64,000 bases of DNA from Candidatus Saccharimonadales bacterium (lineage in GTDB: Bacteria; Patescibacteriota; Saccharimonadia; Saccharimonadales; UBA10212), in NCBI GenBank assembly GCA_049521895.1, contig JBEKOJ010000001.1:34717-98716 (forward strand), in the 5' to 3' direction. The notes below the pieces were generated by a model. It was not told the origin of the DNA. It saw nothing but the letters and a program-made list of their open reading frames with translations, and made no database searches. The position numbers were made by a program, and so were the translations under genes. Shown here in pieces: positions 1,833 to 56,703 of this stretch. Numbering within the stretch: the stretch's first letter is position 1; the number at the start of each line of letters is the position of its first letter.

Positions 1833-2942
1833 GTGGACGAGCTAAAAAATCAGCTAGATAAGCTGAACAACGAAGTTAGCCAAGCCGCTGGCCGGATCGG
1901 TCTGGACGAGCTGGAATCTGAATTAAATGAGCTGCGCCAACAGATGCAAGCGCCAGATTTTTGGGCCGACAATAAAAAGGCGCAAGAAATCAGCAAGCAA
2001 GAAGCTAACATGGCTCACCGCGTAGAACCTTGGCAAAAACTACAGCGAGAAATTGGTGAGGCTGGCGAACTAATAAGCCTTAGCGATACTAGTCTGGAAA
2101 AAGAACTTGCGGCTAAACTCTCAGCTCTCAGCTCTCAGCTCTCAGCTCTAAAACGCGAGCTGCGTTTCAGTGGTCCATACGATGACCACGATGTGATTTT
2201 GGGTGTCTATGCCGGCGCCGGTGGCACCGATGCCCAGGACTGGGCACAGATGCTGCTCAGGATGTACTTACGCTGGGCCGAAGCCCAAAAACTAAAAGCC
2301 GAAATTGTCGATCAATCGGCGGGCGAGGAAGCTGGCATCAAAAGTGCTACCGTTAAACTCTCCGGCGGCAGCTTTTTATATGGCAAACTGGTCGGCGAGC
2401 ACGGCGTGCACCGCTTGGTACGCCTCAGTCCGTTTAATGCCGATAACTTGCGCCAGACTAGCTTTGCCAAAGTTGAAATTTTACCTTTGATTGACAGGCC
2501 CGATGAGGTGCAGCTTGACGAAAAAGATCTCAAAATCGATGTTTTCCGGTCCGGCGGCCATGGCGGCCAATCGGTTAATACTACCGACTCCGCAGTGCGC
2601 GTAACACATTTGCCGACGGGCATCACAGTAAGCGTCCAAAATGAGCGCTCCCAACTGCAAAACCGTGAAACCGCTCTGGGAATTTTGCGCTCGCGCCTGG
2701 CGGCGCTGCAACTGGAACAACACGTCAAAAACCTAGCGGACATTAAGGGTCCAAACCAATCGGCGGAGTGGGGCAACCAAATCCGCAGCTACGTCCTGCA
2801 TCCTTATAAACAGGTTAAAGATAACCGCACCGGCTTTGAATCCAGCGACGTCGAGAAGGTCTTAGACGGCAATCTTAATCCTCTCATCGACGCCTGCCTA
2901 GAAGCAGACTTTCGAGCTAGCTCGTCTTCACCTCGACCCTAA
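1833..2942 (+). CDS. prfB: peptide chain release factor 2; single uninterrupted frame; last ~13 codons supplied by a MITE
   Basis: SPF tripeptide (RLSPFNA) and GGQ motif (SGGHGGQSVN). 369 aa, GTG start after AAGGAG. No in-frame TGA frameshift site. Confidence 0.9.
   Translation: MDELKNQLDKLNNEVSQAAGRIGLDELESELNELRQQMQAPDFWADNKKAQEISKQEANMAHRVEPWQKLQREIGEAGELISLSDTSLEKELAAKLSALSSQLSALKRELRFSGPYDDHDVILGVYAGAGGTDAQDWAQMLLRMYLRWAEAQKLKAEIVDQSAGEEAGIKSATVKLSGGSFLYGKLVGEHGVHRLVRLSPFNADNLRQTSFAKVEILPLIDRPDEVQLDEKDLKIDVFRSGGHGGQSVNTTDSAVRVTHLPTGITVSVQNERSQLQNRETALGILRSRLAALQLEQHVKNLADIKGPNQSAEWGNQIRSYVLHPYKQVKDNRTGFESSDVEKVLDGNLNPLIDACLEADFRASSSSPRP
2118..2149 (+). repeat. heptanucleotide tandem repeat (period 7, ~4.5 units) inside prfB
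   Basis: Sequence ctctcagctctcagctctcagctctcagctct, encoding LSALSSQLSAL. Confidence 0.8.
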
Positions 2943-3051
2943 TTATTCGACGTTAAGCTATTAGTCCCGAAAAATTTTAAGTAATTGGAAGGTTTAATGA
3001 CGAGCTAGGGTTCCAAGCTTTGTCGAATAATCTCGAAAGCTCGCTTCTAGG
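2897..3051. mobile_element. MITE copy A (~155 bp), 4-bp target duplication CCTG
   Basis: TIRs are cctagaagcagactttcgag and ctcgaaagctcgcttctagg. Flanked by CCTG (2893-2896 and 3052-3055). Internal sequence is homologous to the 14801-14956 copy. Confidence 0.65.
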
Positions 3052-3102
3052 CCTGGCTCGAGCAGCCCAAACCGTAAACATTATCTGATATACTTGTAAG
3101 CG

Positions 3103-3783: not shown

Positions 3784-3922
3784 TTGCATCATTCCATTTA
3801 CCATTTACCATTTACCATTTACCATTAATTTCTCATTTTTCATTTCTCAATGGCCAATTGTTAAATGATAAATCATTGAAAATTGTAAATTGTAAATTGA
3901 AAACTGCTGCCGGAGGAAGCCT
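3784..3922. repeat. AT-rich intergenic module, copy 3 (CATTTAC x4.5), separating ftsE from ftsX
   Basis: Sequence ccatttaccatttaccatttaccatttaccatt ... aattgtaaattgtaaattg (inverted). GGAGGA SD precedes the ftsX GTG. Confidence 0.6.
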
Positions 3923-9490: not shown

Positions 9491-11004
9491 TATCTCTTCG
9501 CTATTATAATTAATTGGCGTGCTACGACTTGGTCTTCGCGGTAGTACAAAAGCTCGTCTCTTGGCACGTGTTTTAGATCCAGGTAATTGTAACCCATATC
9601 TGTTAATTTATCAAGCACAGGCAGGTAGATAAACCCGCCGTCCGGTTTCTTCCAGGCCGGCACTGCCAGACACATTTTCTGACCCGGTTTCGTCTGCGCT
9701 CCTATGTTAAGCAGAAATTTTTTAGTGATAGTATTCACGTCATTAATTATTAGCTGTAGTTTTTCGCGTGGCGGTAGGTTGTTAAGCGGACGTCCCAAGT
9801 AAATCTCACTGGCAACGACGCTAAAACGCGGCCAAGTAGTATTAGTTGCATCGGCTATCTCCACCGAAACCTGAACCTCGATTTGGGGGTTTTGTTTAAC
9901 CAGCCACGCCAAGTTTTCTTTGGTGTATTCAACCATTCGCGAGTCAATATCGCTACCCAGAACGTGATAACCCATCAGCGCGGCCTCCTGCAAAATCACC
10001 CCCGTGCCGCAAAACGGATCCAGCACACGAATACGCGACGCACCGACCTGCTGGCTGGCTGAACCAGCCACTCTGTCGGTGCTTTTGGCGGATCGCTGTG
10101 TTGACAACTGCGCTGCTCGCTCACCGTATTGGTTATACGGCTTGCTTCGCTGCTCGTTGTCGCCTGGCGCTCCATCCAAACGCGCATCGTGTAAAACTTT
10201 TCTTTCGATGGGACCGACCGCTAGGTTGATGATTATTTGGGCGAGCTTGGGCGGTAGCATGCCTACGCGGGCGTCACGCCGCGGTCGGGCTTGGTCGCGG
10301 GCACCGTAGGCTTCGATATCCTGTACAAAAAAAGTTTGGGCCAAAATAGTCTCCTGGCCGTTTTTGACGAGCAGTAGCTCCCATGCACCCTTGCTGGTCA
10401 GCTTATTGTGCAGCACTTGGGCGCTGTTTAAAGCCGCCGACTTATTAGGAACTACACGCATTGGCCTGTCGCTGGCCCTTTTGATGCTTATACCTAACTT
10501 GTTGATTTCAGCGGCTGGCACCGCCAACCCATAAAAGCTCAGTCCTAGCGTAAATTTACCCGGTAGTAGACTTTCGCGTTGTCCGCCATAGGCGGGCCTA
10601 GCTTCCCGGCCACTTGGCCGAGAAGGTCGCGAAAGCTCACTACCGGGCTTACCTGGCGGCACGTGCGTCAGATGTTTAGGCACGTTATCTAGCAGGTATT
10701 TTTTAATATCCTTCCAGTCAGTGCTGGGCAGGGTAGCCAAAACCTGGGCAACCTTTATCGAACCGCCAAGTCGCTTGAAATTAATCTCGCCGGCGTCAAT
10801 ATCCAGTAACGCCGCTTGCCCCGTGGAATGCAAAGCAGATTCCACTGGGGCGCCACGGACTGGCTGCACCCCGATGGAATGGTCGCCTGCGGCGAATCCC
10901 ACGGGGTAAACGTGCTCGGCGCCGTATAGGCTTTCCAGTTCCGCCAAACCCAAAGCGGGCTGTCGTCCTAGAATGCACAAACTCTTCAGTTTAAACTCTG
11001 CCAT
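9490..11004 (-). CDS. putative RNA (guanine-N2-type, UPF0020/Trm11-like) SAM methyltransferase with low-complexity insertions
   Basis: Sequence MLPPKLAQIIINLA ... VLDPFCGTGVILQEAALMG ... GSDID. Two Pro/Ser/Arg/Gln-rich inserts. Confidence 0.55.
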   Translation of the reverse strand: MAEFKLKSLCILGRQPALGLAELESLYGAEHVYPVGFAAGDHSIGVQPVRGAPVESALHSTGQAALLDIDAGEINFKRLGGSIKVAQVLATLPSTDWKDIKKYLLDNVPKHLTHVPPGKPGSELSRPSRPSGREARPAYGGQRESLLPGKFTLGLSFYGLAVPAAEINKLGISIKRASDRPMRVVPNKSAALNSAQVLHNKLTSKGAWELLLVKNGQETILAQTFFVQDIEAYGARDQARPRRDARVGMLPPKLAQIIINLAVGPIERKVLHDARLDGAPGDNEQRSKPYNQYGERAAQLSTQRSAKSTDRVAGSASQQVGASRIRVLDPFCGTGVILQEAALMGYHVLGSDIDSRMVEYTKENLAWLVKQNPQIEVQVSVEIADATNTTWPRFSVVASEIYLGRPLNNLPPREKLQLIINDVNTITKKFLLNIGAQTKPGQKMCLAVPAWKKPDGGFIYLPVLDKLTDMGYNYLDLKHVPRDELLYYREDQVVARQLIIIAKR

Positions 11005-14726: not shown

Positions 14727-14800
14727 CCATTAGGATAATACAACAAACTCTCGCACTCTTGCTAAAGGAGGCCATTCTGCATTAACATAAGCATAGTATG

Positions 14801-14956
14801 CCCGGTAGTAGACTTTCGAGTCAGCTCGTCGTCCCCGTAGGATTTTATTCGGCGTCTGGGCTTTATTTAGGGTACAGACTTATGTATAAAGAAGACGATA
14901 TTAGCGAGCTGGAGGTTACAAGCCATGTCGAATAATCTCGAAAGCTCACTACCGGG
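14801..14956. mobile_element. MITE copy B (~156 bp), 4-bp target duplication TATG
   Basis: TIRs are cccggtagtagactttcgag and ctcgaaagctcactaccggg. TATG is present on both flanks (14797-14800 and 14957-14960). Confidence 0.7.
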
Positions 14957-14957
14957 T

Positions 14958-15635
14958 ATGAAACGAACCGAGAGTGGGTCGGCCGCCACAATTCTGATTA
15001 TTGTAGTTCTGGCTGTCTTGGCAGTCGGGGCAGCAGTTTTTGGCGTTTGGGCATACAGTGGCAGGCAAGACTATAAGAATAATTCCGATAAGAAAACCGC
15101 TGCCGCCGTGGCTGCCGCCGAAGCTAGCCAAAAAACCCAGCTGCAGACCCAGTTTGACCAAGAAATCAAACAGCCCTATAAAACTTTTACCGGTTCTTCT
15201 ACTTATGGCTTGATCACCTTCAATTATCCCAATACCTGGAGTTCATACGTTGACCAAACCAACTCCAGTGAACCGATTAACGGCTACTTTAACCCCGGTG
15301 ATGTCCCCGGTACCAGTAGCAACAGCGCCTTTGCCTTGCGCCTGGAGCTGACTAGCAATGCTTATAATGACGTTATAGGACAGTTTAGCTCACAGGTTAC
15401 CGGAGGAACGGTTACCGCTACGGCATACGTGCCGCCTAAGATGAAGGGCGTCGCCAATGCCCAAACCGGTACTTTACTAACCGGGACTATCAGCCAGAAC
15501 AACAGTGGTTCTTTGCAAGGCGAGATGCTCGTCATTCCGGTGCGCGATAAGACGCTGCAGCTCTACACGCTGTCTAACGACTACTTAAGCGACTTTAATA
15601 ATATCGTGTTAGCCAACCTCAAATTTGTACCATAA
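14958..15635 (+). CDS. membrane-anchored secreted hypothetical protein (track start 14925 lies inside the MITE)
   Basis: N-terminal TM AATILIIVVLAVLAVGAAVFGVWAY. No recognisable domain. Confidence 0.5.
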   Translation: MKRTESGSAATILIIVVLAVLAVGAAVFGVWAYSGRQDYKNNSDKKTAAAVAAAEASQKTQLQTQFDQEIKQPYKTFTGSSTYGLITFNYPNTWSSYVDQTNSSEPINGYFNPGDVPGTSSNSAFALRLELTSNAYNDVIGQFSSQVTGGTVTATAYVPPKMKGVANAQTGTLLTGTISQNNSGSLQGEMLVIPVRDKTLQLYTLSNDYLSDFNNIVLANLKFVP

Positions 15636-23860: not shown

Positions 23861-23886
23861 CCCGGATTTCCCAAAACCAGCGTAAA
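23861..23886 (+). promoter_or_regulatory. cassette junction motif, long form, copy 5, split by a MITE after ...GCGTAAA
   Basis: Sequence cccggatttcccaaaaccagcgtaaa | MITE | taaaat (23957-23962), then 8 nt to ATG 23971. Confidence 0.6.
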
Positions 23887-23956
23887 CCCGGTAGTGAGCT
23901 ATCGAGATTTAATAATGTATCCGCAAAGCGGATAGACTCGAAAGTCTACTACGGGG
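23887..23956. mobile_element. MITE copy C (70-bp internally deleted derivative), target duplication TAAA
   Basis: TIRs are cccggtagtgagctatcgag and ctcgaaagtctactacgggg. TAAA is present on both flanks. Confidence 0.65.
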
Positions 23957-23970
23957 TAAAATAAAACCAA

Positions 23971-25256: not shown

Positions 25257-25288
25257 CCCCATAGTAATATCTGCGATATACTACGGGG
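25257..25288. repeat. 32-bp hairpin with MITE-like termini (CCCCATAGTA ... TACTACGGGG), preceded by GGGAATAC
   Basis: Read directly from the sequence. No target duplication, so this may be a solo-TIR remnant or a terminator. Confidence 0.4.
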
Positions 25289-45708: not shown

Positions 45709-48387
45709 TTAACGGAAGCGAACGATATACTCGTCACTAGAATCAGCCAGTTTATTGTCGCTGCTGTCGGCTTGCTTTTGTCGTTGAGTTGTAGCGCCCC
45801 CGTCTTGACGTTGCTGTCCTTGGTTTTTGCGCCCACCGCGCCGGGTACGTTTGCGCTTTGGTGCTCCAGTAGAACCACCGCTATCACTACTAACATTGCT
45901 GAGCAGGCTTGCCGCGATTTTACCTAAATTGCCGCCGTAGGGTTTGGCGCCGCTGCGTGCAGTTTCTGCTCGCTGTTTAGCGATTTCGTTCAACTGTGCT
46001 TGAGCTTTTGGCCGAGCCACTTGTGGGGCAGCCTGAGGGTTATTTGCTAGGTCTGTAAGATCCAAACCAGTGTTTTTGCGGATCAGAGCATCTACGGATG
46101 CACGGTCCTTAGTGTAGCGTTCGCGTGATAGTTCTATGATGCGGCTGCTGGAGTCATCCGGCGGTTCGGGCAGGTTTAGTGTTTTGGCCGAGAAAGCCGG
46201 AGCTTTCTCGCCGCCGATGGTCATAGTGGCTACAAAATAGCGGTTGTGCTGCTGGATCAGGTCTCCGGCTTCAAACTGCGGCTCGAAATATTTAACCAAA
46301 AATGGTGCATCATCGGGACTGACGCGGAAACAGACGATAGTACCAACGTTACCGAACACCGCATTACGCACCGGCTCTTCCATCTGTGAAATGTACTGGT
46401 TGGCCACAGTTAAATTAAGCGCGTATTTGCGGGCCTCACTTAAAATGGTAGCAAAAGATTCCGTGGCAAAGACCTGGAACTCATCAACATAAAGGTAGAA
46501 CGGTCGGCGCTCGGCTTCTGGTACATCAGCACGTCCCATGGCGGCCAGCTGGATTTTGGTAACCATCATGGCGCCCAAAATACCGGCGTTATCTTCACCC
46601 ATCAGGCCGCGACTAAGATTGACTATCAGGATTTTTCCTTGGTCCATGATCTGGCGGAGGTTAAACGTACTCTTGGGCTGGCCGATGATATTCCTCACCA
46701 TCGGATTAGCTGTAAATGCACCAACTTTGTTGAGCACTGGTGCGACTGCCTCGGACGCGAACCTGTCATTCCAGCTGGCGAATTCCGTGACCCAAAAATT
46801 TTTGACCACCGGATCATCTATGTAACCGATGACGCCCGACCGGAATTTCTTGTCTGTCAGCATCCTCGTGATATCCAACATAGTGGAATTCGGGTAATCA
46901 AGCAGGGCTAGCAGCGTGTAGCGTAGAATATATTCCAGACGCGGACCCCAGCTTTCGGCGAACAAACGTTTAAGTACGCCAACCAGCTCGGAGCTGATAT
47001 GGCCCTTCAGGGTCGGATCGGTAATTTCCAGCGGGTTGAAGCCTATTGGGTGCTCAGTGTCGGCAGGGTTGAAATAAACCACATCATCTATGCGCCGTTC
47101 AGGAATGAATTTCAACACATGCTGGGCATAGTCACCGTGTGGATCGATTACCGCGAAGCCCTGGTTGTAGTAAATATCTGATAAAGTAAACAGCTCCAGT
47201 GCGCCGGATTTACCGGTGCCGGTCTGCCCCAAAATGTAAACATGCCGGCCGCGGTCCTCGCGCAGCAGTCCAAAAACAGTATTATCGCCGCGGAAATTGG
47301 TTACACCAAACAGGCTAATATCACTCTCTGGAGAGCTCGCCAGAGTGGGCACATTTGAGGGCGGCTCGGCAGTTTTAGTGTTTGCCCAGACTATGTTAGG
47401 TGTTTCCACCGTAGTGTGCGGCAAATGGAAGATACTAGCCAGCTCCTCGATATTTAAGATGTAGCCTTTATCAATAAACAAACGCGCTTGGTATTCGATT
47501 TGCCGGTCGCGGTTAAAGTTCGCCCTCCTAGCTTCAAAGCCATTGAGATTAGTTGTGTTGAATTGCTTAAATGCCCCCACCAGCGCCTGCATACGCAGGC
47601 GAGCGGTGTATTGATCGTGTCCGGCGTACAGCAGCCGGATTTTCACCTGGTATCCTAGCTTAGTCCCCTTCTGTTCTATGGCAGTGATGCGCGATTTGTC
47701 CCGCTCAGATATCTCTGGTTCTTTGCGTCCGCCACCGACTCCAGTTTCTGGTGGTTTAGCTAAGGCTCCAAAAACCTGGCTGGCGTAGCTTAGGGTGGCC
47801 CCACCTGCCCCGCTACTGAATAATCCGCCGCCGCGGCGAATGCGTTCGATAACCCTCGCTCCCCTGCGATGCCAGTCATCGGGTATTGGACGGACTATAA
47901 TTTGTATCCACATTTCTTCGTCTTGGCCGTCTAATTTGGCCAAAGTTGCAGTGATAGCGGCCAGTGGGTCTACCTCGAAACTAGGGAAAGTTTTAATTGG
48001 CAGTGTCTCATTGTCTGTTAATACCAATTCGGCGCTGTGGATTACTGTTTGGGACAGCGGCCTGTCGGCATAATCTTCGTCCTGTTCGTAAATCTGTACT
48101 GTAGGATACTGTGCATAGATCTGGCCCTCAACAAAGGCTTGTAAGTGCTTGGGAGTCCAGATATAAAAGCGTAGACGTTGGCCGATCGCTGCCATTTCCA
48201 AACTGAAATGTTCCTGAAGAGTTCCTGAGAGCCTTAGCTCGCGTTTAGGCCGTAAAATACCGTGAAGGGCAGCCAGCATCTGCTCCGCTGCCAATTCTTT
48301 TTTGTCGTTTGTGCGGGGAATCTCCAGCATCAGCAGACAATGCTCATGCCCGGGCGCTGCTTTTTTTGCTCCACTAAATATTTTCAT
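45709..48387 (-). CDS. orphan FtsK/HerA/VirD4-superfamily P-loop ATPase (TraD/TraG coupling-protein-like)
   Basis: Walker A GQTGTGKSG, AVIDPHGDY, Walker B FYLYVDEFQVF, then ANQYISQ. Unknown ~370-aa N-domain and a basic low-complexity tail. Confidence 0.55.
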   Translation of the reverse strand: MKIFSGAKKAAPGHEHCLLMLEIPRTNDKKELAAEQMLAALHGILRPKRELRLSGTLQEHFSLEMAAIGQRLRFYIWTPKHLQAFVEGQIYAQYPTVQIYEQDEDYADRPLSQTVIHSAELVLTDNETLPIKTFPSFEVDPLAAITATLAKLDGQDEEMWIQIIVRPIPDDWHRRGARVIERIRRGGGLFSSGAGGATLSYASQVFGALAKPPETGVGGGRKEPEISERDKSRITAIEQKGTKLGYQVKIRLLYAGHDQYTARLRMQALVGAFKQFNTTNLNGFEARRANFNRDRQIEYQARLFIDKGYILNIEELASIFHLPHTTVETPNIVWANTKTAEPPSNVPTLASSPESDISLFGVTNFRGDNTVFGLLREDRGRHVYILGQTGTGKSGALELFTLSDIYYNQGFAVIDPHGDYAQHVLKFIPERRIDDVVYFNPADTEHPIGFNPLEITDPTLKGHISSELVGVLKRLFAESWGPRLEYILRYTLLALLDYPNSTMLDITRMLTDKKFRSGVIGYIDDPVVKNFWVTEFASWNDRFASEAVAPVLNKVGAFTANPMVRNIIGQPKSTFNLRQIMDQGKILIVNLSRGLMGEDNAGILGAMMVTKIQLAAMGRADVPEAERRPFYLYVDEFQVFATESFATILSEARKYALNLTVANQYISQMEEPVRNAVFGNVGTIVCFRVSPDDAPFLVKYFEPQFEAGDLIQQHNRYFVATMTIGGEKAPAFSAKTLNLPEPPDDSSSRIIELSRERYTKDRASVDALIRKNTGLDLTDLANNPQAAPQVARPKAQAQLNEIAKQRAETARSGAKPYGGNLGKIAASLLSNVSSDSGGSTGAPKRKRTRRGGRKNQGQQRQDGGATTQRQKQADSSDNKLADSSDEYIVRFR

Positions 48388-52214: not shown

Positions 52215-52286
52215 CCCCGTAGTAAATCCTGAATGGAAAAGAGGAAAAATATTCCTATTTTGAAATATCAAGATTTCACTGCGGGG
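52215..52286. mobile_element. 72-bp MITE-like element with related termini (CCCCGTAGTAAATC / GATTTCACTGCGGGG)
   Basis: Inverted termini share CCCCGYAGT with the other copies. Flanks are CCTA and TCTA. Confidence 0.4.
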
Positions 52287-52323: not shown

Positions 52324-53193
52324 TCAGGCAGCGTGCCAATGTCCATTGCCAGAAGGCTTTATATAGCCGGCTATTTCTAACATAGTTAATGTGCTACTTA
52401 TGGCCGACCCGTTAAGCTGACAGGCCAGCGCCAGGTCTTCTTGGTCACTTATACCGTTGGCTATCAGTCGCAGCAGACGTACTGCTTCAGGGCTACCGCG
52501 AAACTTCTTAGCTTTTTCGGCCCCGCCGAATCTTATATTAAGTGCGAAAAATATATCCTCAACTGTCGTTACTGGCACGGCGCCGCTTTTTATAAGATTA
52601 TTACAGCCCTCGCTGCCCAGGTTGGTAATGTTACCCGGTACCACCATAACAGTTTTGCCTTGCTCCAGTGCGAAACGGGCAGTATGTAAAGTACCGCTAT
52701 TGACTGCCGCTTCTGTTATCAGCAGTATGTCCGCCAAGCCACTAACGATCCGGTTGCGGGCAATGAAATTCACTCTATACCCAGGGTAACTATCAGCATA
52801 CTCGGATATCAAGCTGCCACTCTGCTCTATTATTTGCCTAGCAAGATTAACGTGTGAAGACGGGTAAATTTGTTGTAGCGGAGTTGGTAAAACGGCCACC
52901 GTGCAGCCACCGGCATCTAAAGCAGCCTGATGCGCGATGCTGTCGATACCCAGCGCCAAACCGCTGATTATCACTACCCCTGCCCGGGCTAACTCACCTG
53001 CTATTTTTTGAGTAACCCCGCGGCCATAATAACTAGCCTTGCGGCTGCCAACTATCGCTACACGCGGTTTACCCAGCCACTCAGCGGGATCTACCCCAGC
53101 CCAGAACAACCTCTGCGGACGCTCTGGTATATGTTTTAAAACCTCGGGATATCCGGGGGATCTAAGCGTAAGGGAGTTGACTTTTATCTGCAT
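52324..53193 (-). CDS. dprA: DNA processing protein DprA (Smf)
   Basis: Sequence IISGLALGIDSIAHQAALDAGGCTVAVL. 289 aa. Adjacent to topA. Confidence 0.85.
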   Translation of the reverse strand: MQIKVNSLTLRSPGYPEVLKHIPERPQRLFWAGVDPAEWLGKPRVAIVGSRKASYYGRGVTQKIAGELARAGVVIISGLALGIDSIAHQAALDAGGCTVAVLPTPLQQIYPSSHVNLARQIIEQSGSLISEYADSYPGYRVNFIARNRIVSGLADILLITEAAVNSGTLHTARFALEQGKTVMVVPGNITNLGSEGCNNLIKSGAVPVTTVEDIFFALNIRFGGAEKAKKFRGSPEAVRLLRLIANGISDQEDLALACQLNGSAISSTLTMLEIAGYIKPSGNGHWHAA

Positions 53194-55878: not shown

Positions 55879-56703
55879 TTATAGGCCACCGCTAGAACTG
55901 CCCGCTGGGGGAGTTGAACCTGCACTGTTGTCGGCTGGCGGAGTTGCGGGTTCGTCGGCTGGCGGAGTTGCGGGTTCGTCGGCTGGCGGAGGAGTGACAG
56001 GTACACTGCCGCCGTCGCTGGCGGCTGCGCTGTCATTGCCCGGCATTGCCGGCGCCGAACTGTCGGCTGGCGGAGTTGTCGGTGCACTAGGCGTAAAACT
56101 ATTGATCTGGCTATCAACGGCACTCTGTTCCTGGGCGGTGCTCATCTGGCCGCTGTTATCTGCCGGCGCACTAGGCGTTACTGGCACGCCGCTAATAGGG
56201 TTGGCGTCTGGCGCTGGGCTGGGGGCCGCTGCGTCTGGCGCGGGGTTAGTTGGTGTACTTGGATCGTCTGGCATGGATTGCTCACTTTCTTGCTTATTAG
56301 TTACTACAGCGTCTGGCTGCTGGTCGATGGATTGACCGGGCTGCAAGACGTCATGTACCACGCGAACGAAATCTTCTAGGGTGACCTGAGATTTCACTAA
56401 ATACTTTACCACGCCCAGCTTTTCTCCGCGAGCCTGATCTTCGGCTTGGCCTAAAGCGGTCATCATGACCACTTTAGTGTTGGCCATGTCGGGAGCTGCG
56501 CGCAAAGTTTCCAACATCTCAAACCCGGACAGCCTGGGCATCATTACATCGGCAATAATTAAATCAGGTTTTTCTTTGACTGCTACGGTTAGAGCTTCCT
56601 CGCCATCGCCGGCAGTTACTATTTGATAGCCTTCGGCCTGCAGGCGCATCGCGAAAATTTCACGCAGTGCCTGGTCATCCTCTACCAGTAAAACCTTGGC
56701 CAT
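55879..56703 (-). CDS. response regulator receiver with Pro/Ala/Ser-rich low-complexity tail instead of an output domain
   Basis: Sequence VLLVEDD ... DLIIADVMMP ... K. The C-terminal ~150 aa includes PPADEPAT repeats. Confidence 0.75.
   Translation of the reverse strand: MAKVLLVEDDQALREIFAMRLQAEGYQIVTAGDGEEALTVAVKEKPDLIIADVMMPRLSGFEMLETLRAAPDMANTKVVMMTALGQAEDQARGEKLGVVKYLVKSQVTLEDFVRVVHDVLQPGQSIDQQPDAVVTNKQESEQSMPDDPSTPTNPAPDAAAPSPAPDANPISGVPVTPSAPADNSGQMSTAQEQSAVDSQINSFTPSAPTTPPADSSAPAMPGNDSAAASDGGSVPVTPPPADEPATPPADEPATPPADNSAGSTPPAGSSSGGL
55930..55992 (-). repeat. 24-bp tandem repeat (2.6 units) encoding PPADEPAT
   Basis: Sequence gtcggctggcggagttgcgggttc x2 plus a partial unit. A related copy lies at 56062-56078. 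Confidence 0.8.

Follow-up and report, generated by a model that had tools for sequence, protein, structure and literature searches.

A 64-kb stretch of DNA from a Candidatus Saccharimonadales bacterium (contig JBEKOJ010000001.1) was analysed; this whole stretch of 64,000 nucleotides is called the window below. It was found to carry four copies of a short repeat belonging to a real, dispersed family of miniature mobile elements in Saccharibacteria (TM7). Members of the family are closed by terminal inverted repeats (TIRs), and the same termini bound a small coding unit of 313 bp that encodes a GIY-YIG nuclease. Target-site duplications, empty sites, a palindromic target consensus and covarying helices were demonstrated for the family. 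It is probable (about 0.6) that the GIY-YIG unit has the miniature copies as its non-autonomous partners, that the nuclease recognises the stem formed by the two termini (P1) and that insertion occurs via a 4-base staggered break at G|YWWR|C. The binding and cutting of the stem by the nuclease, its role in the spread of the elements and the chemistry of insertion are what we infer from the evidence that follows.

The element family and the GIY-YIG unit

Three of the four copies, A, B and C, had been proposed in the initial annotation of the window, and a direct check confirmed their coordinates, their ~20-bp termini and their perfect 4-bp flanks. Inspection of the sequence gave CCTG|CCTAGAAGCAGACTTTCGAG...CTCGAAAGCTCGCTTCTAGG|CCTG for the ends and flanks of copy A, TATG|CCCGGTAGTAGACTTTCGAG...CTCGAAAGCTCACTACCGGG|TATG for those of copy B and TAAA|CCCGGTAGTGAGCTATCGAG...CTCGAAAGTCTACTACGGGG|TAAA for those of copy C. 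Copy D, which was absent from that annotation, was found with a degenerate terminus pattern and an inverted-repeat search. The features of the window are listed below (helices a and b are the inner helices of the long copies).

Copy A, 2897-3051 (155 nt), + strand: long class, variant termini CCTAGAAGC; P1 arms 2897-2916 / 3032-3051; helix a 2917-2926 / 2999-3008; helix b 2943-2951 / 3022-3030; target duplication CCTG, left 2893-2896, right 3052-3055
Copy B, 14801-14956 (156 nt), + strand: long class; P1 arms 14801-14820 / 14937-14956; helix a 14821-14830 / 14903-14912; helix b 14845-14853 / 14927-14935; target duplication TATG, left 14797-14800, right 14957-14960
Copy C, 23887-23956 (70 nt), - strand: short class, GAG arm at the left end of the + strand; target duplication TAAA, left 23883-23886, right 23957-23960
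Copy D, 10559-10647 (89 nt), + strand: short class, P1 stem and two hairpins; flanks TTTA 10555-10558 and CTTA 10648-10651 (TAAA and TAAG on the coding strand)
Possible decayed short copy, 52215-52286 (72 nt), + strand: arms CCCCGTAGTAAATC / CCCCGCAGTGAAATC (reverse complement); flanks CCTA / TCTA
Hairpin, 25257-25288 (32 nt): CCCCATAGTAATATC-TGC-GATATACTACGGGG, only the outer 8-10 bases family-like

The arms are 20 bp long and complementary at 17 of 20 positions. The 3-base mismatch at positions 10-12 is conserved, with AGA in one arm and GAG (as the reverse complement) in the other. Because of this asymmetry, every copy has an orientation; in the window, A, B and D point alike on the + strand and C is opposite. 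The degenerate TIR pattern matched the window nine times against 0.76 expected, and none of 100 shuffled sequences reached nine. A relaxed search of the window for arm pairs returned copies A-D only, together with the weak candidate at 52215-52286, whereas shuffled sequence gave 0-1. The element density was one per 16 kb of the window, which has a GC content of ~48% and housekeeping genes syntenic with Saccharibacteria contigs.

As the initial annotation had proposed, the TIR pattern was then searched for more widely. An exact-pattern scan of one genome per species gave 29 loci, and a metagenome scan gave 99 more. Together, these contained 120 paired elements, 93 of them distinct, in ~0.94 Mb of public Saccharibacteria/Patescibacteria DNA. 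In the genome scan, the 22 loci with a partner arm were all labelled Saccharibacteria/Patescibacteria, except L008, a 6-kb contig binned as Binatia; the seven single-arm loci came from assemblies binned as other phyla. The 93 distinct copies fell into two discrete size classes: 49 measure 67-95 nt and 44 measure 154-162 nt. The internal homology of the copies that had been noticed initially (AGCTCGTC, TTATTCGAC, GTCGAATAATCTCGAAAGC) proved real and is conserved over the 44 long-class copies. Copy C, in contrast, is not an internally deleted derivative of the long copies, as had been supposed, but belongs to the separate short class, whose 49 distinct members each have two hairpins of their own.

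At one of the retrieved loci (L009:1317-1629, 313 bp), the family termini were found around a 104-aa open reading frame (ORF) on the minus strand with a Pfam GIY-YIG match at E 1e-17. The GIY-YIG protein has 96-107 aa, matches PF01541 over residues 11-80 and has no second domain. The L009 protein has 1158 relatives at E below 1e-5, and those whose source is named are all from Saccharibacteria or other Patescibacteria. Among the best 120 homologs, the catalytic residues are conserved, 93 proteins start with MPSSELS and 80 end in a QKVYY-like sequence. These two motifs are the termini read as codons, ATG|CCT AGT AGT GAG CTT TC... and ...CAG AAA GTC TAC TAC TAG|G, and a frame-shifted C-terminal variant, HRKSTTGYA, is the same terminus DNA in another frame. 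The closest 120 homologs carry the termini as conserved codons in ~75% of cases, so the association of gene and termini is old and systematic. An NCBIfam group I intron endonuclease model matched the unit protein weakly, below its cut-off, and the match to the solved UPF0213 structure 1ZG2 (E 1e-3) was weaker than that to a Rhizobium homolog (E 1e-6).

Six units were delimited at the DNA level. They measure 307-313 bp, all lie between the inverted termini that also bound miniature copies, and share the AGA/GAG asymmetry with them. Their gene contexts are five: the L009 site, the regions 5' of a HAD hydrolase gene, 5' of tig (in two genomes) and 5' of ftsA, and the position after ruvB. Each of the six is in sense orientation and adjoins the ATG of the next gene, and four have a perfect TATG duplication. 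An empty site was found at L083, which has the ruvB-neighbour arrangement with a single TATG and without the unit. Units and miniature copies occur together at one locus (L009) and in one assembly, DASTHW01 (L018, L146). Three derivatives of 125-130 nt, located at xATG, have unit-type termini and resemble the unit for a few bases further inward.

The autonomous partner with the same TIRs and a transposase gene that the initial annotation had envisaged was not found in the retrieved loci. In these 128 loci, no arm pairs 400-4000 bp apart were detected with the miniature-form terminus at up to 4 mismatches, and the GIY-YIG gene was the only ORF seen between family termini. A GIY-YIG nuclease as the only coding partner changes what kind of system this probably is. 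Small enzymes of this type have been characterised (Chenal et al., Nat Commun 2025, PMC11893778). According to the main text of that study, the Ssn nucleases consist of a single GIY-YIG domain in 94 aa; they bind NTS/SRM hairpins, cut single-stranded DNA a few bases upstream and do not act on double-stranded DNA or RNA.

At L130, L138, L146 and L149, and in L083:1030-1065, -10-like boxes (TAGAAT, TACAAT, TATACT and TGGTATAAT) precede the TATG targets of the units by 8-13 nt. This spacing suggests that the mRNAs of the invaded genes may be leaderless or have a very short leader, with the unit perhaps expressed as a new first cistron.

Two hairpins of the window had been regarded initially as shorter relatives of the family. 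That at 52215-52286, between topA and dprA, matches at 12-13 of 20 positions per arm, keeps the A/G asymmetry at position 10 and has flanks that agree in three of four bases; it is plausibly a decayed family copy. The hairpin at 25257-25288 has no flanking duplication and its kinship to the family was not established.

Several candidates from the scans were rejected. The non-Patescibacteria hits (L010, L017, L019-L021, L025, L029) and the high-GC metagenome contigs L046, L076 and L117 have single arms only; in the last three, the matches lie inside high-GC coding sequence and look like chance. A scan of viral contigs gave one isolated match, which is probably also due to chance. Two single 20-mers without a partner arm recur, CTCGAAAGTCCACTACCGGG in L017, L019 and L025 and CGCGAAAGTCCACTACCGGG in L010, L020 and L123, with sources in Myxococcota, Anaerolineae, Betaproteobacteria, Acidobacteriaceae, Limnocylindrales and one unlabelled metagenome contig. 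One possibility, by analogy with L046, L076 and L117, is that they represent a conserved coding motif.

Target sites, host genes and fold

Perfect adjacent 4-mers flanked 54 of the 92 distinct copies with enough flank, against 0, 0 and 1 in three shifted controls; some copies had 3- or 5-bp repeats instead. With these counts and the empty sites of copies A and D, the 4-bp target-site duplications proposed in the initial annotation are genuine. The target consensus of the 52 distinct perfect-duplication sites, G|YWWR|C, is its own reverse complement; G never occurred at position 1 and C never at positions 3 and 4. This self-complementarity indicates a two-fold symmetric complex and a cut of double-stranded DNA with a 4-base stagger.

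The empty site of copy A was found in L095, where prfB runs uninterrupted through GACGCTTGG to its own stop. For copy D, the occupied site of the window (...CAGG TAAG [element] TAAA TTT...) corresponds to empty sites with a single 4-mer in L154 (...CCGG TAAG TTT...) and L155 (...CCGG AAAA TTC...). The difference between the two flanks of copy D is synonymous, since AAG and AAA both encode Lys. Copies B and C are orthologous to copies in genomes whose flanks are only ~70-85% identical (for copy C, those of L055, L091, L093, L008, L034, L063, L013 and L059), and are old insertions that were retained. Intact duplications, from which recent mobility had been argued initially, are therefore no sign of recent movement.

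The elements were found at the ends, at the starts and in the interior of genes. Copy A interrupts the final codons of prfB (ORF 1833-2942), splitting GACGC CTG|G, so that the natural C-terminal tail is exchanged for 15 element-encoded residues and an element-encoded stop; the original tail, WLEQPKP*, is still legible downstream. The region 3' of prfB was entered separately in the window (long class, + orientation), in L095 (long class, opposite orientation, 29 nt further) and in L109 (short class). A long open frame ends within 22 of the 93 distinct copies, often via TAG TAG in the terminus.

At gene starts, the duplication itself supplies a codon. The ATG of the right-hand TATG of copy B (14958-14960) is the start of a 225-codon ORF (14958-15635, + strand). 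There are 16 distinct flanks in which xATG abuts an element, and 12 of them, that of copy B included, open an ORF of at least 60 codons or one running past the contig end. The duplicated xATG thus restores the start codon of the invaded gene. Several miniature copies were also seen at CTGA|TATAAT.

Copy D lies in frame within an ORF for a Trm11-like methyltransferase (9493-11004, - strand) and adds 31 residues (KPGSELSRPSRPSGREARPAYGGQRESLLPG), which are missing in all 11 aligned homologs. Long open frames span nine of the 93 copies, and in each of these the element plus its duplication is a multiple of three. Copy C lies outside genes, with a NUDIX gene on one side and a DNA-alkylation-repair gene on the other.

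The methyltransferase ORF contains two further inserts, both read on its minus strand. A different palindromic insert of ~88 nt at 10819-10906 (CCCCGTGGGATTCGCC...GCATTCCACGGGG) gives ~26 extra residues (GFAAGDHSIGVQPVRGAPVESALHSTGQ), also missing in all 11 aligned homologs; its termini, CCCCGTGG, recall the CCCCGYAGT hairpins and the stem of a Novosphingobium Ssn-flanking repeat (GCCCCGTG...CACGGGGC). The third in-frame insert, at ~10030-10176, encodes ~45 residues (RLDGAPGDNEQRSKPYNQYGERAAQLSTQRSAKSTDRVAGSASQQV) and is common to the proteins P0131, P0136 and P0126; in P0131 and P0136 a second similar insert (…EKRSKPYIKYGER…) occurs at another place in the protein. The shared inserts of ~45 residues suggest another element family that enters coding regions.

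Other repeats and neighbouring genes were also observed. The prfB-ftsE region that holds copy A is bracketed by AT-rich intergenic sequences at 1693-1816 and 3794-3821, with short tandem repeats of the CCATTTA type (CCATTTACCATTTA twice) and a 37-nt imperfect inverted repeat. Inside the ORF at 55879-56703 (- strand), 24-nt repeats (GTCGGCTGGCGGAGTTGCGGGTTC) are both tandem and dispersed over 55930-56085, with two exact tandem copies, a third consisting of the first 14 nt only and an 88% copy 84 nt further. The gene dprA (52324-53193, - strand) adjoins the possible decayed copy, and a gene for an 892-aa HerA/TraD-like ATPase (45709-48387, - strand) lies near it. DprA processes single-stranded DNA in transformation. 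Both genes deserve mention in view of the effect that the related Ssn system has on natural transformation.

In the short copies, the 20-bp P1 stem closes a three-way junction with two hairpins, whose sequence varies between copies while their pairing is kept; the interior can face either way with respect to the arm asymmetry. The inner hairpin of copy C is TATCCGC-TTT-GCGGATA, which on the + strand reads TATCCGC-AAA-GCGGATA at 23909-23925. The long copies combine P1 with helix a (TCAGCTCGTC / GACGAGCTGA) and helix b (TTATTCGAC / GTCGAATAA), which interleave in the pseudoknot-type order a-b-a'-b'. In the alignment of the 44 long-class sequences, both partners vary in 18 of 39 pairs; shuffled alignments gave 5.3±1.6 such pairs, and none of 500 reached the observed number. 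The signal collapsed when partners were slid by 1-3 columns. Eight of the double-sided changes fall in helix a and five in helix b. The fold z-scores were -4.1 and -5.4. By these comparisons, the fold is under constraint, and covariation does not tell the RNA level from that of single-stranded DNA. The non-canonical pairs (G·T versus A·C) indicate no consistent strand, as the count points to the complementary strand in helix a but to the given strand in helix b.

A recurrent inner hairpin of short copies, (G)TCTATCCGC-NNN-GCGGATAC, bears a loose resemblance to the core of the Neisseria NTS, CGTCATTCCCGCG-MAV-GCGGGAATC. The two match at ~14 of 25 positions with gaps, the published SRM regular expression fails on the hairpin, and the likeness may reflect chance or distant kinship.

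Possible modes of spread

The partnership with the GIY-YIG unit could operate as follows. In single-stranded or extruded DNA, the two termini would pair into the 20-bp P1 stem, in which the conserved mismatch of AGA opposite CTC would mark strand and orientation. The nuclease would recognise the folded stem and, by analogy with the characterised Ssn enzymes, cut near its base. Entry into double-stranded G|YWWR|C targets would require a 4-base staggered break, the repair of which would leave the 4-bp duplication. Coding units would persist where the duplicated TATG supplies a host start codon to the unit and hands one back to the host gene. Three positions would be tolerable for miniature copies: the start of a gene, its end, where one frame of the terminus reads TAG TAG, and its interior, if the reading frame is kept.

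A bolder proposal, for which our confidence is tentative, is that the 313-bp unit is an autonomous transposon mobilised by its only protein, the GIY-YIG nuclease of ~100 aa. If so, no autonomous mobile element known would be smaller, and DNA transposons would include a class that lacks any DDE, HUH, serine or tyrosine enzyme. The unit would have neither a promoter nor a start codon of its own and would acquire a start codon from a host gene by duplicating TATG. The same mode of spread would then be implied for the widespread Ssn/SRM repeats and perhaps for the Rickettsia palindromic elements. A mobilising nuclease would define a new mechanistic class of transposon and provide a compact, programmable pair of structure-specific nuclease and substrate.

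Several points weigh against the assignment of the miniature copies to the GIY-YIG unit. No GIY-YIG gene was detected by tblastn in the 64-kb window. The units have termini (CCTAGTAGT...CTTTCTGT) that depart in 3-5 of 20 positions from the ones carried by most miniature copies (CCCGGTAGT...CTTTCGAG). The SRM consensus HGTCWY N0-2 YYVSBRH N0-5 WNVSBRG N0-2 RNCYNB, used as a regular expression, matched nothing around three units, one of the 93 miniature copies and one site in the window, which is the chance level. In orthologous copies, the P1 arms are 88-100% identical and the interiors and flanks 68-84%; this strong conservation of P1 is in part an effect of ascertainment, each locus having been retrieved through exact identity with one arm, and is no clean evidence of selection. 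GIY-YIG nucleases are hydrolytic and are not known to have strand-transfer or transposase activity. Finally, duplications of fixed length at a palindromic target form the classical DDE-transposase signature.

This signature, together with the TIRs, makes up the textbook features on which a rather unlikely alternative draws. According to it, the copies are classical miniature inverted-repeat transposable elements (MITEs), moved in trans by the DDE transposase of an insertion sequence (IS) with 4-bp duplications (IS5-, IS701- or IS1380-like) that is located elsewhere or was lost, and the GIY-YIG unit is a mere passenger-carrying derivative. The window would agree with this, as it contains no coding partner of any kind: a Pfam scan of its 30 largest ORFs found only housekeeping genes and no transposase domain. 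Since both a transposase and a GIY-YIG gene are missing there, the copies of the window are non-autonomous, as had been stated initially. A guess of IS1380/ISEcp1-like ends (CCTAGA...) was set aside, no transposase against which to check it having been found. However, no IS-spaced termini were detected in 0.94 Mb around more than 120 copies, a search with the miniature-form terminus over retrieved loci that leaves the absence of an IS unproven. Moreover, the GIY-YIG gene is the only ORF seen between the termini there and has them as conserved codons in most of its closest homologs. A related nuclease family is also independently flanked by its own dispersed repeats, as given in the main text of the Ssn study (PMC11893778).

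A host-level function like that proposed for Neisseria NTS/SsnA is improbable as the main reason why the repeats are kept. Here, the repeats would be cleavage sites for a nuclease specific for single-stranded DNA, which restricts or shapes incoming single strands in natural transformation, and the transposon features would be relics of a domesticated element. SsnA/NTS is described in that main text as modulating transformation in N. meningitidis (PMC11893778). Copies B and C are old yet retained, dprA is present in the window, and the P1 arms are better conserved than the interiors, although that measure is biased by locus retrieval. The independent entries 3' of prfB in three lineages and the location of units at different loci in different genomes nevertheless point to continued mobility. 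Such a function is compatible with the GIY-YIG partnership and not exclusive of it.

It is very improbable that the conserved fold is a functional RNA (a ribozyme, a riboswitch-like element or an mRNA-processing signal), which the significant covariation in three helices with a pseudoknot-type arrangement among them, the stable folds and the CUGAYGAG-like box and GAAA of the long class would suit, because Rfam 15, which includes hammerhead, HDV-like and twister models, returned only a tRNA at gathering score in the window and no relevant match for either strand of copy B at E up to 10, the copies lie in both orientations to genes and also inside coding regions, the short-copy interior takes both orientations to the termini, the non-canonical pairs favour no strand, and the related Ssn enzyme, as given in the same main text (PMC11893778), does not bind RNA. 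A hammerhead or HDV-like ribozyme, which the two boxes and the a-b-a'-b' order call to mind, was rejected, given the blank Rfam result, would-be catalytic cores that are not conserved and the position of the CUGAYGAG box inside covarying helix a, unlike a hammerhead core.

The assignment to the GIY-YIG unit remains the favoured explanation. The evidence links a MITE family to such a unit with the hallmarks of transposition, namely target duplications, empty sites and a palindromic target. Genomes of the candidate phyla radiation are ~1 Mb in size and are thought to be poor in mobile DNA. In contrast to that view, the elements are dense here, and some lie in essential genes (prfB and the tRNA-methyltransferase-like gene). 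Whatever enzyme moves them, insertions that duplicate a start codon or remain in frame illustrate how selfish DNA can persist at low cost in a streamlined genome.

Comparison with known systems

In the literature on MITEs in Saccharibacteria and on GIY-YIG genes with TIRs or target duplications, no prior description of this system was found. MITEs and the Ssn/SRM association are already known; the sequence and architecture of the repeats described here differ from those of Ssn/SRM.

With classical MITEs the copies share the 70-160 bp size range, the presence of TIRs and target duplications, a stable fold-back structure, a division into full-length and shorter classes and insertion close to gene boundaries. 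Several traits that define bacterial MITEs were found here: short non-coding dispersed copies (67-162 nt, where the definition allows up to ~300 bp), TIRs and a duplication of fixed length with empty sites. Correia/NEMIS elements of Neisseria, RUP of Streptococcus and ERIC have been traced to, or are assumed to depend on, the DDE transposases of known IS families. In contrast, the retrieved loci contained no such IS and no IS-sized element, and the coding partner that shares the termini is the 313-bp GIY-YIG unit and not a known transposase.

REP/BIME-RAYT systems likewise combine dispersed palindromes with a small nuclease or transposase gene that is present once and lies between the repeats; they also recognise folded single-stranded DNA, as is proposed for the present family. 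RAYTs are HUH/Y1 enzymes (IS200/IS605-like), and REPs have neither a TIR pair that closes the element nor target duplications. The present system differs in having a GIY-YIG enzyme instead of HUH/Y1, a closing TIR pair and target duplications. With homing endonucleases of the I-TevI type it has in common a GIY-YIG catalytic domain on selfish DNA; those enzymes carry extra DNA-binding domains, act through double-strand-break repair into one cognate site and are associated with neither TIRs nor target duplications.

Rickettsia palindromic elements were reportedly described by Ogata et al. in 2000 as short palindromic repeats lying in frame inside protein genes. The likeness is one of behaviour only: palindromic repeats in the reduced genome of a host-dependent bacterium and in-frame insertion that adds a peptide, as in copy D and the nine copies spanned by long frames. 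The sequences are unrelated and the phylum is another, and for the present family there are defined termini and duplications as well as a candidate coding partner.

The closest parallel is the Ssn/SRM system. As given in the main text of Chenal et al., ssn genes are flanked by NTS/SRM repeats, which occur in hundreds of copies, especially in symbionts, and Rickettsia is listed among the SRM-rich genomes; the authors remark that the arrangement is like that of an IS, propose that it was domesticated and raise a mobile-element interpretation of Ssn/NTS only as a hypothesis (PMC11893778). Both systems have a single-domain GIY-YIG protein of ~94-104 aa whose gene lies between inverted copies of a dispersed repeat, fold-forming repeats with built-in polarity and enrichment in symbionts with reduced genomes. 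The unit protein was 34-38% identical to homologs on proteobacterial plasmids (E 1e-6 to 4e-4); the Rhizobium homolog (34% identity, tblastn E 1e-6) is flanked by inverted repeats that fit the SRM regular expression. However, the proteins differ in their C-terminal halves, which do not align. The flanking arms, moreover, are not self-complementary hairpins here but halves of one stem that spans the gene or an interior of 30-120 nt. A term search of the main text of the Ssn paper found no mention of duplications, MITEs or Patescibacteria (PMC11893778), and no report was found in that text, for Ssn, of the 4-bp duplications, empty sites, palindromic target, miniatures of discrete size or start-codon and in-frame insertions seen in Saccharibacteria. 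By analogy, the Saccharibacteria system is best described as one that would work like Ssn/SRM, and not filed as a member of it.

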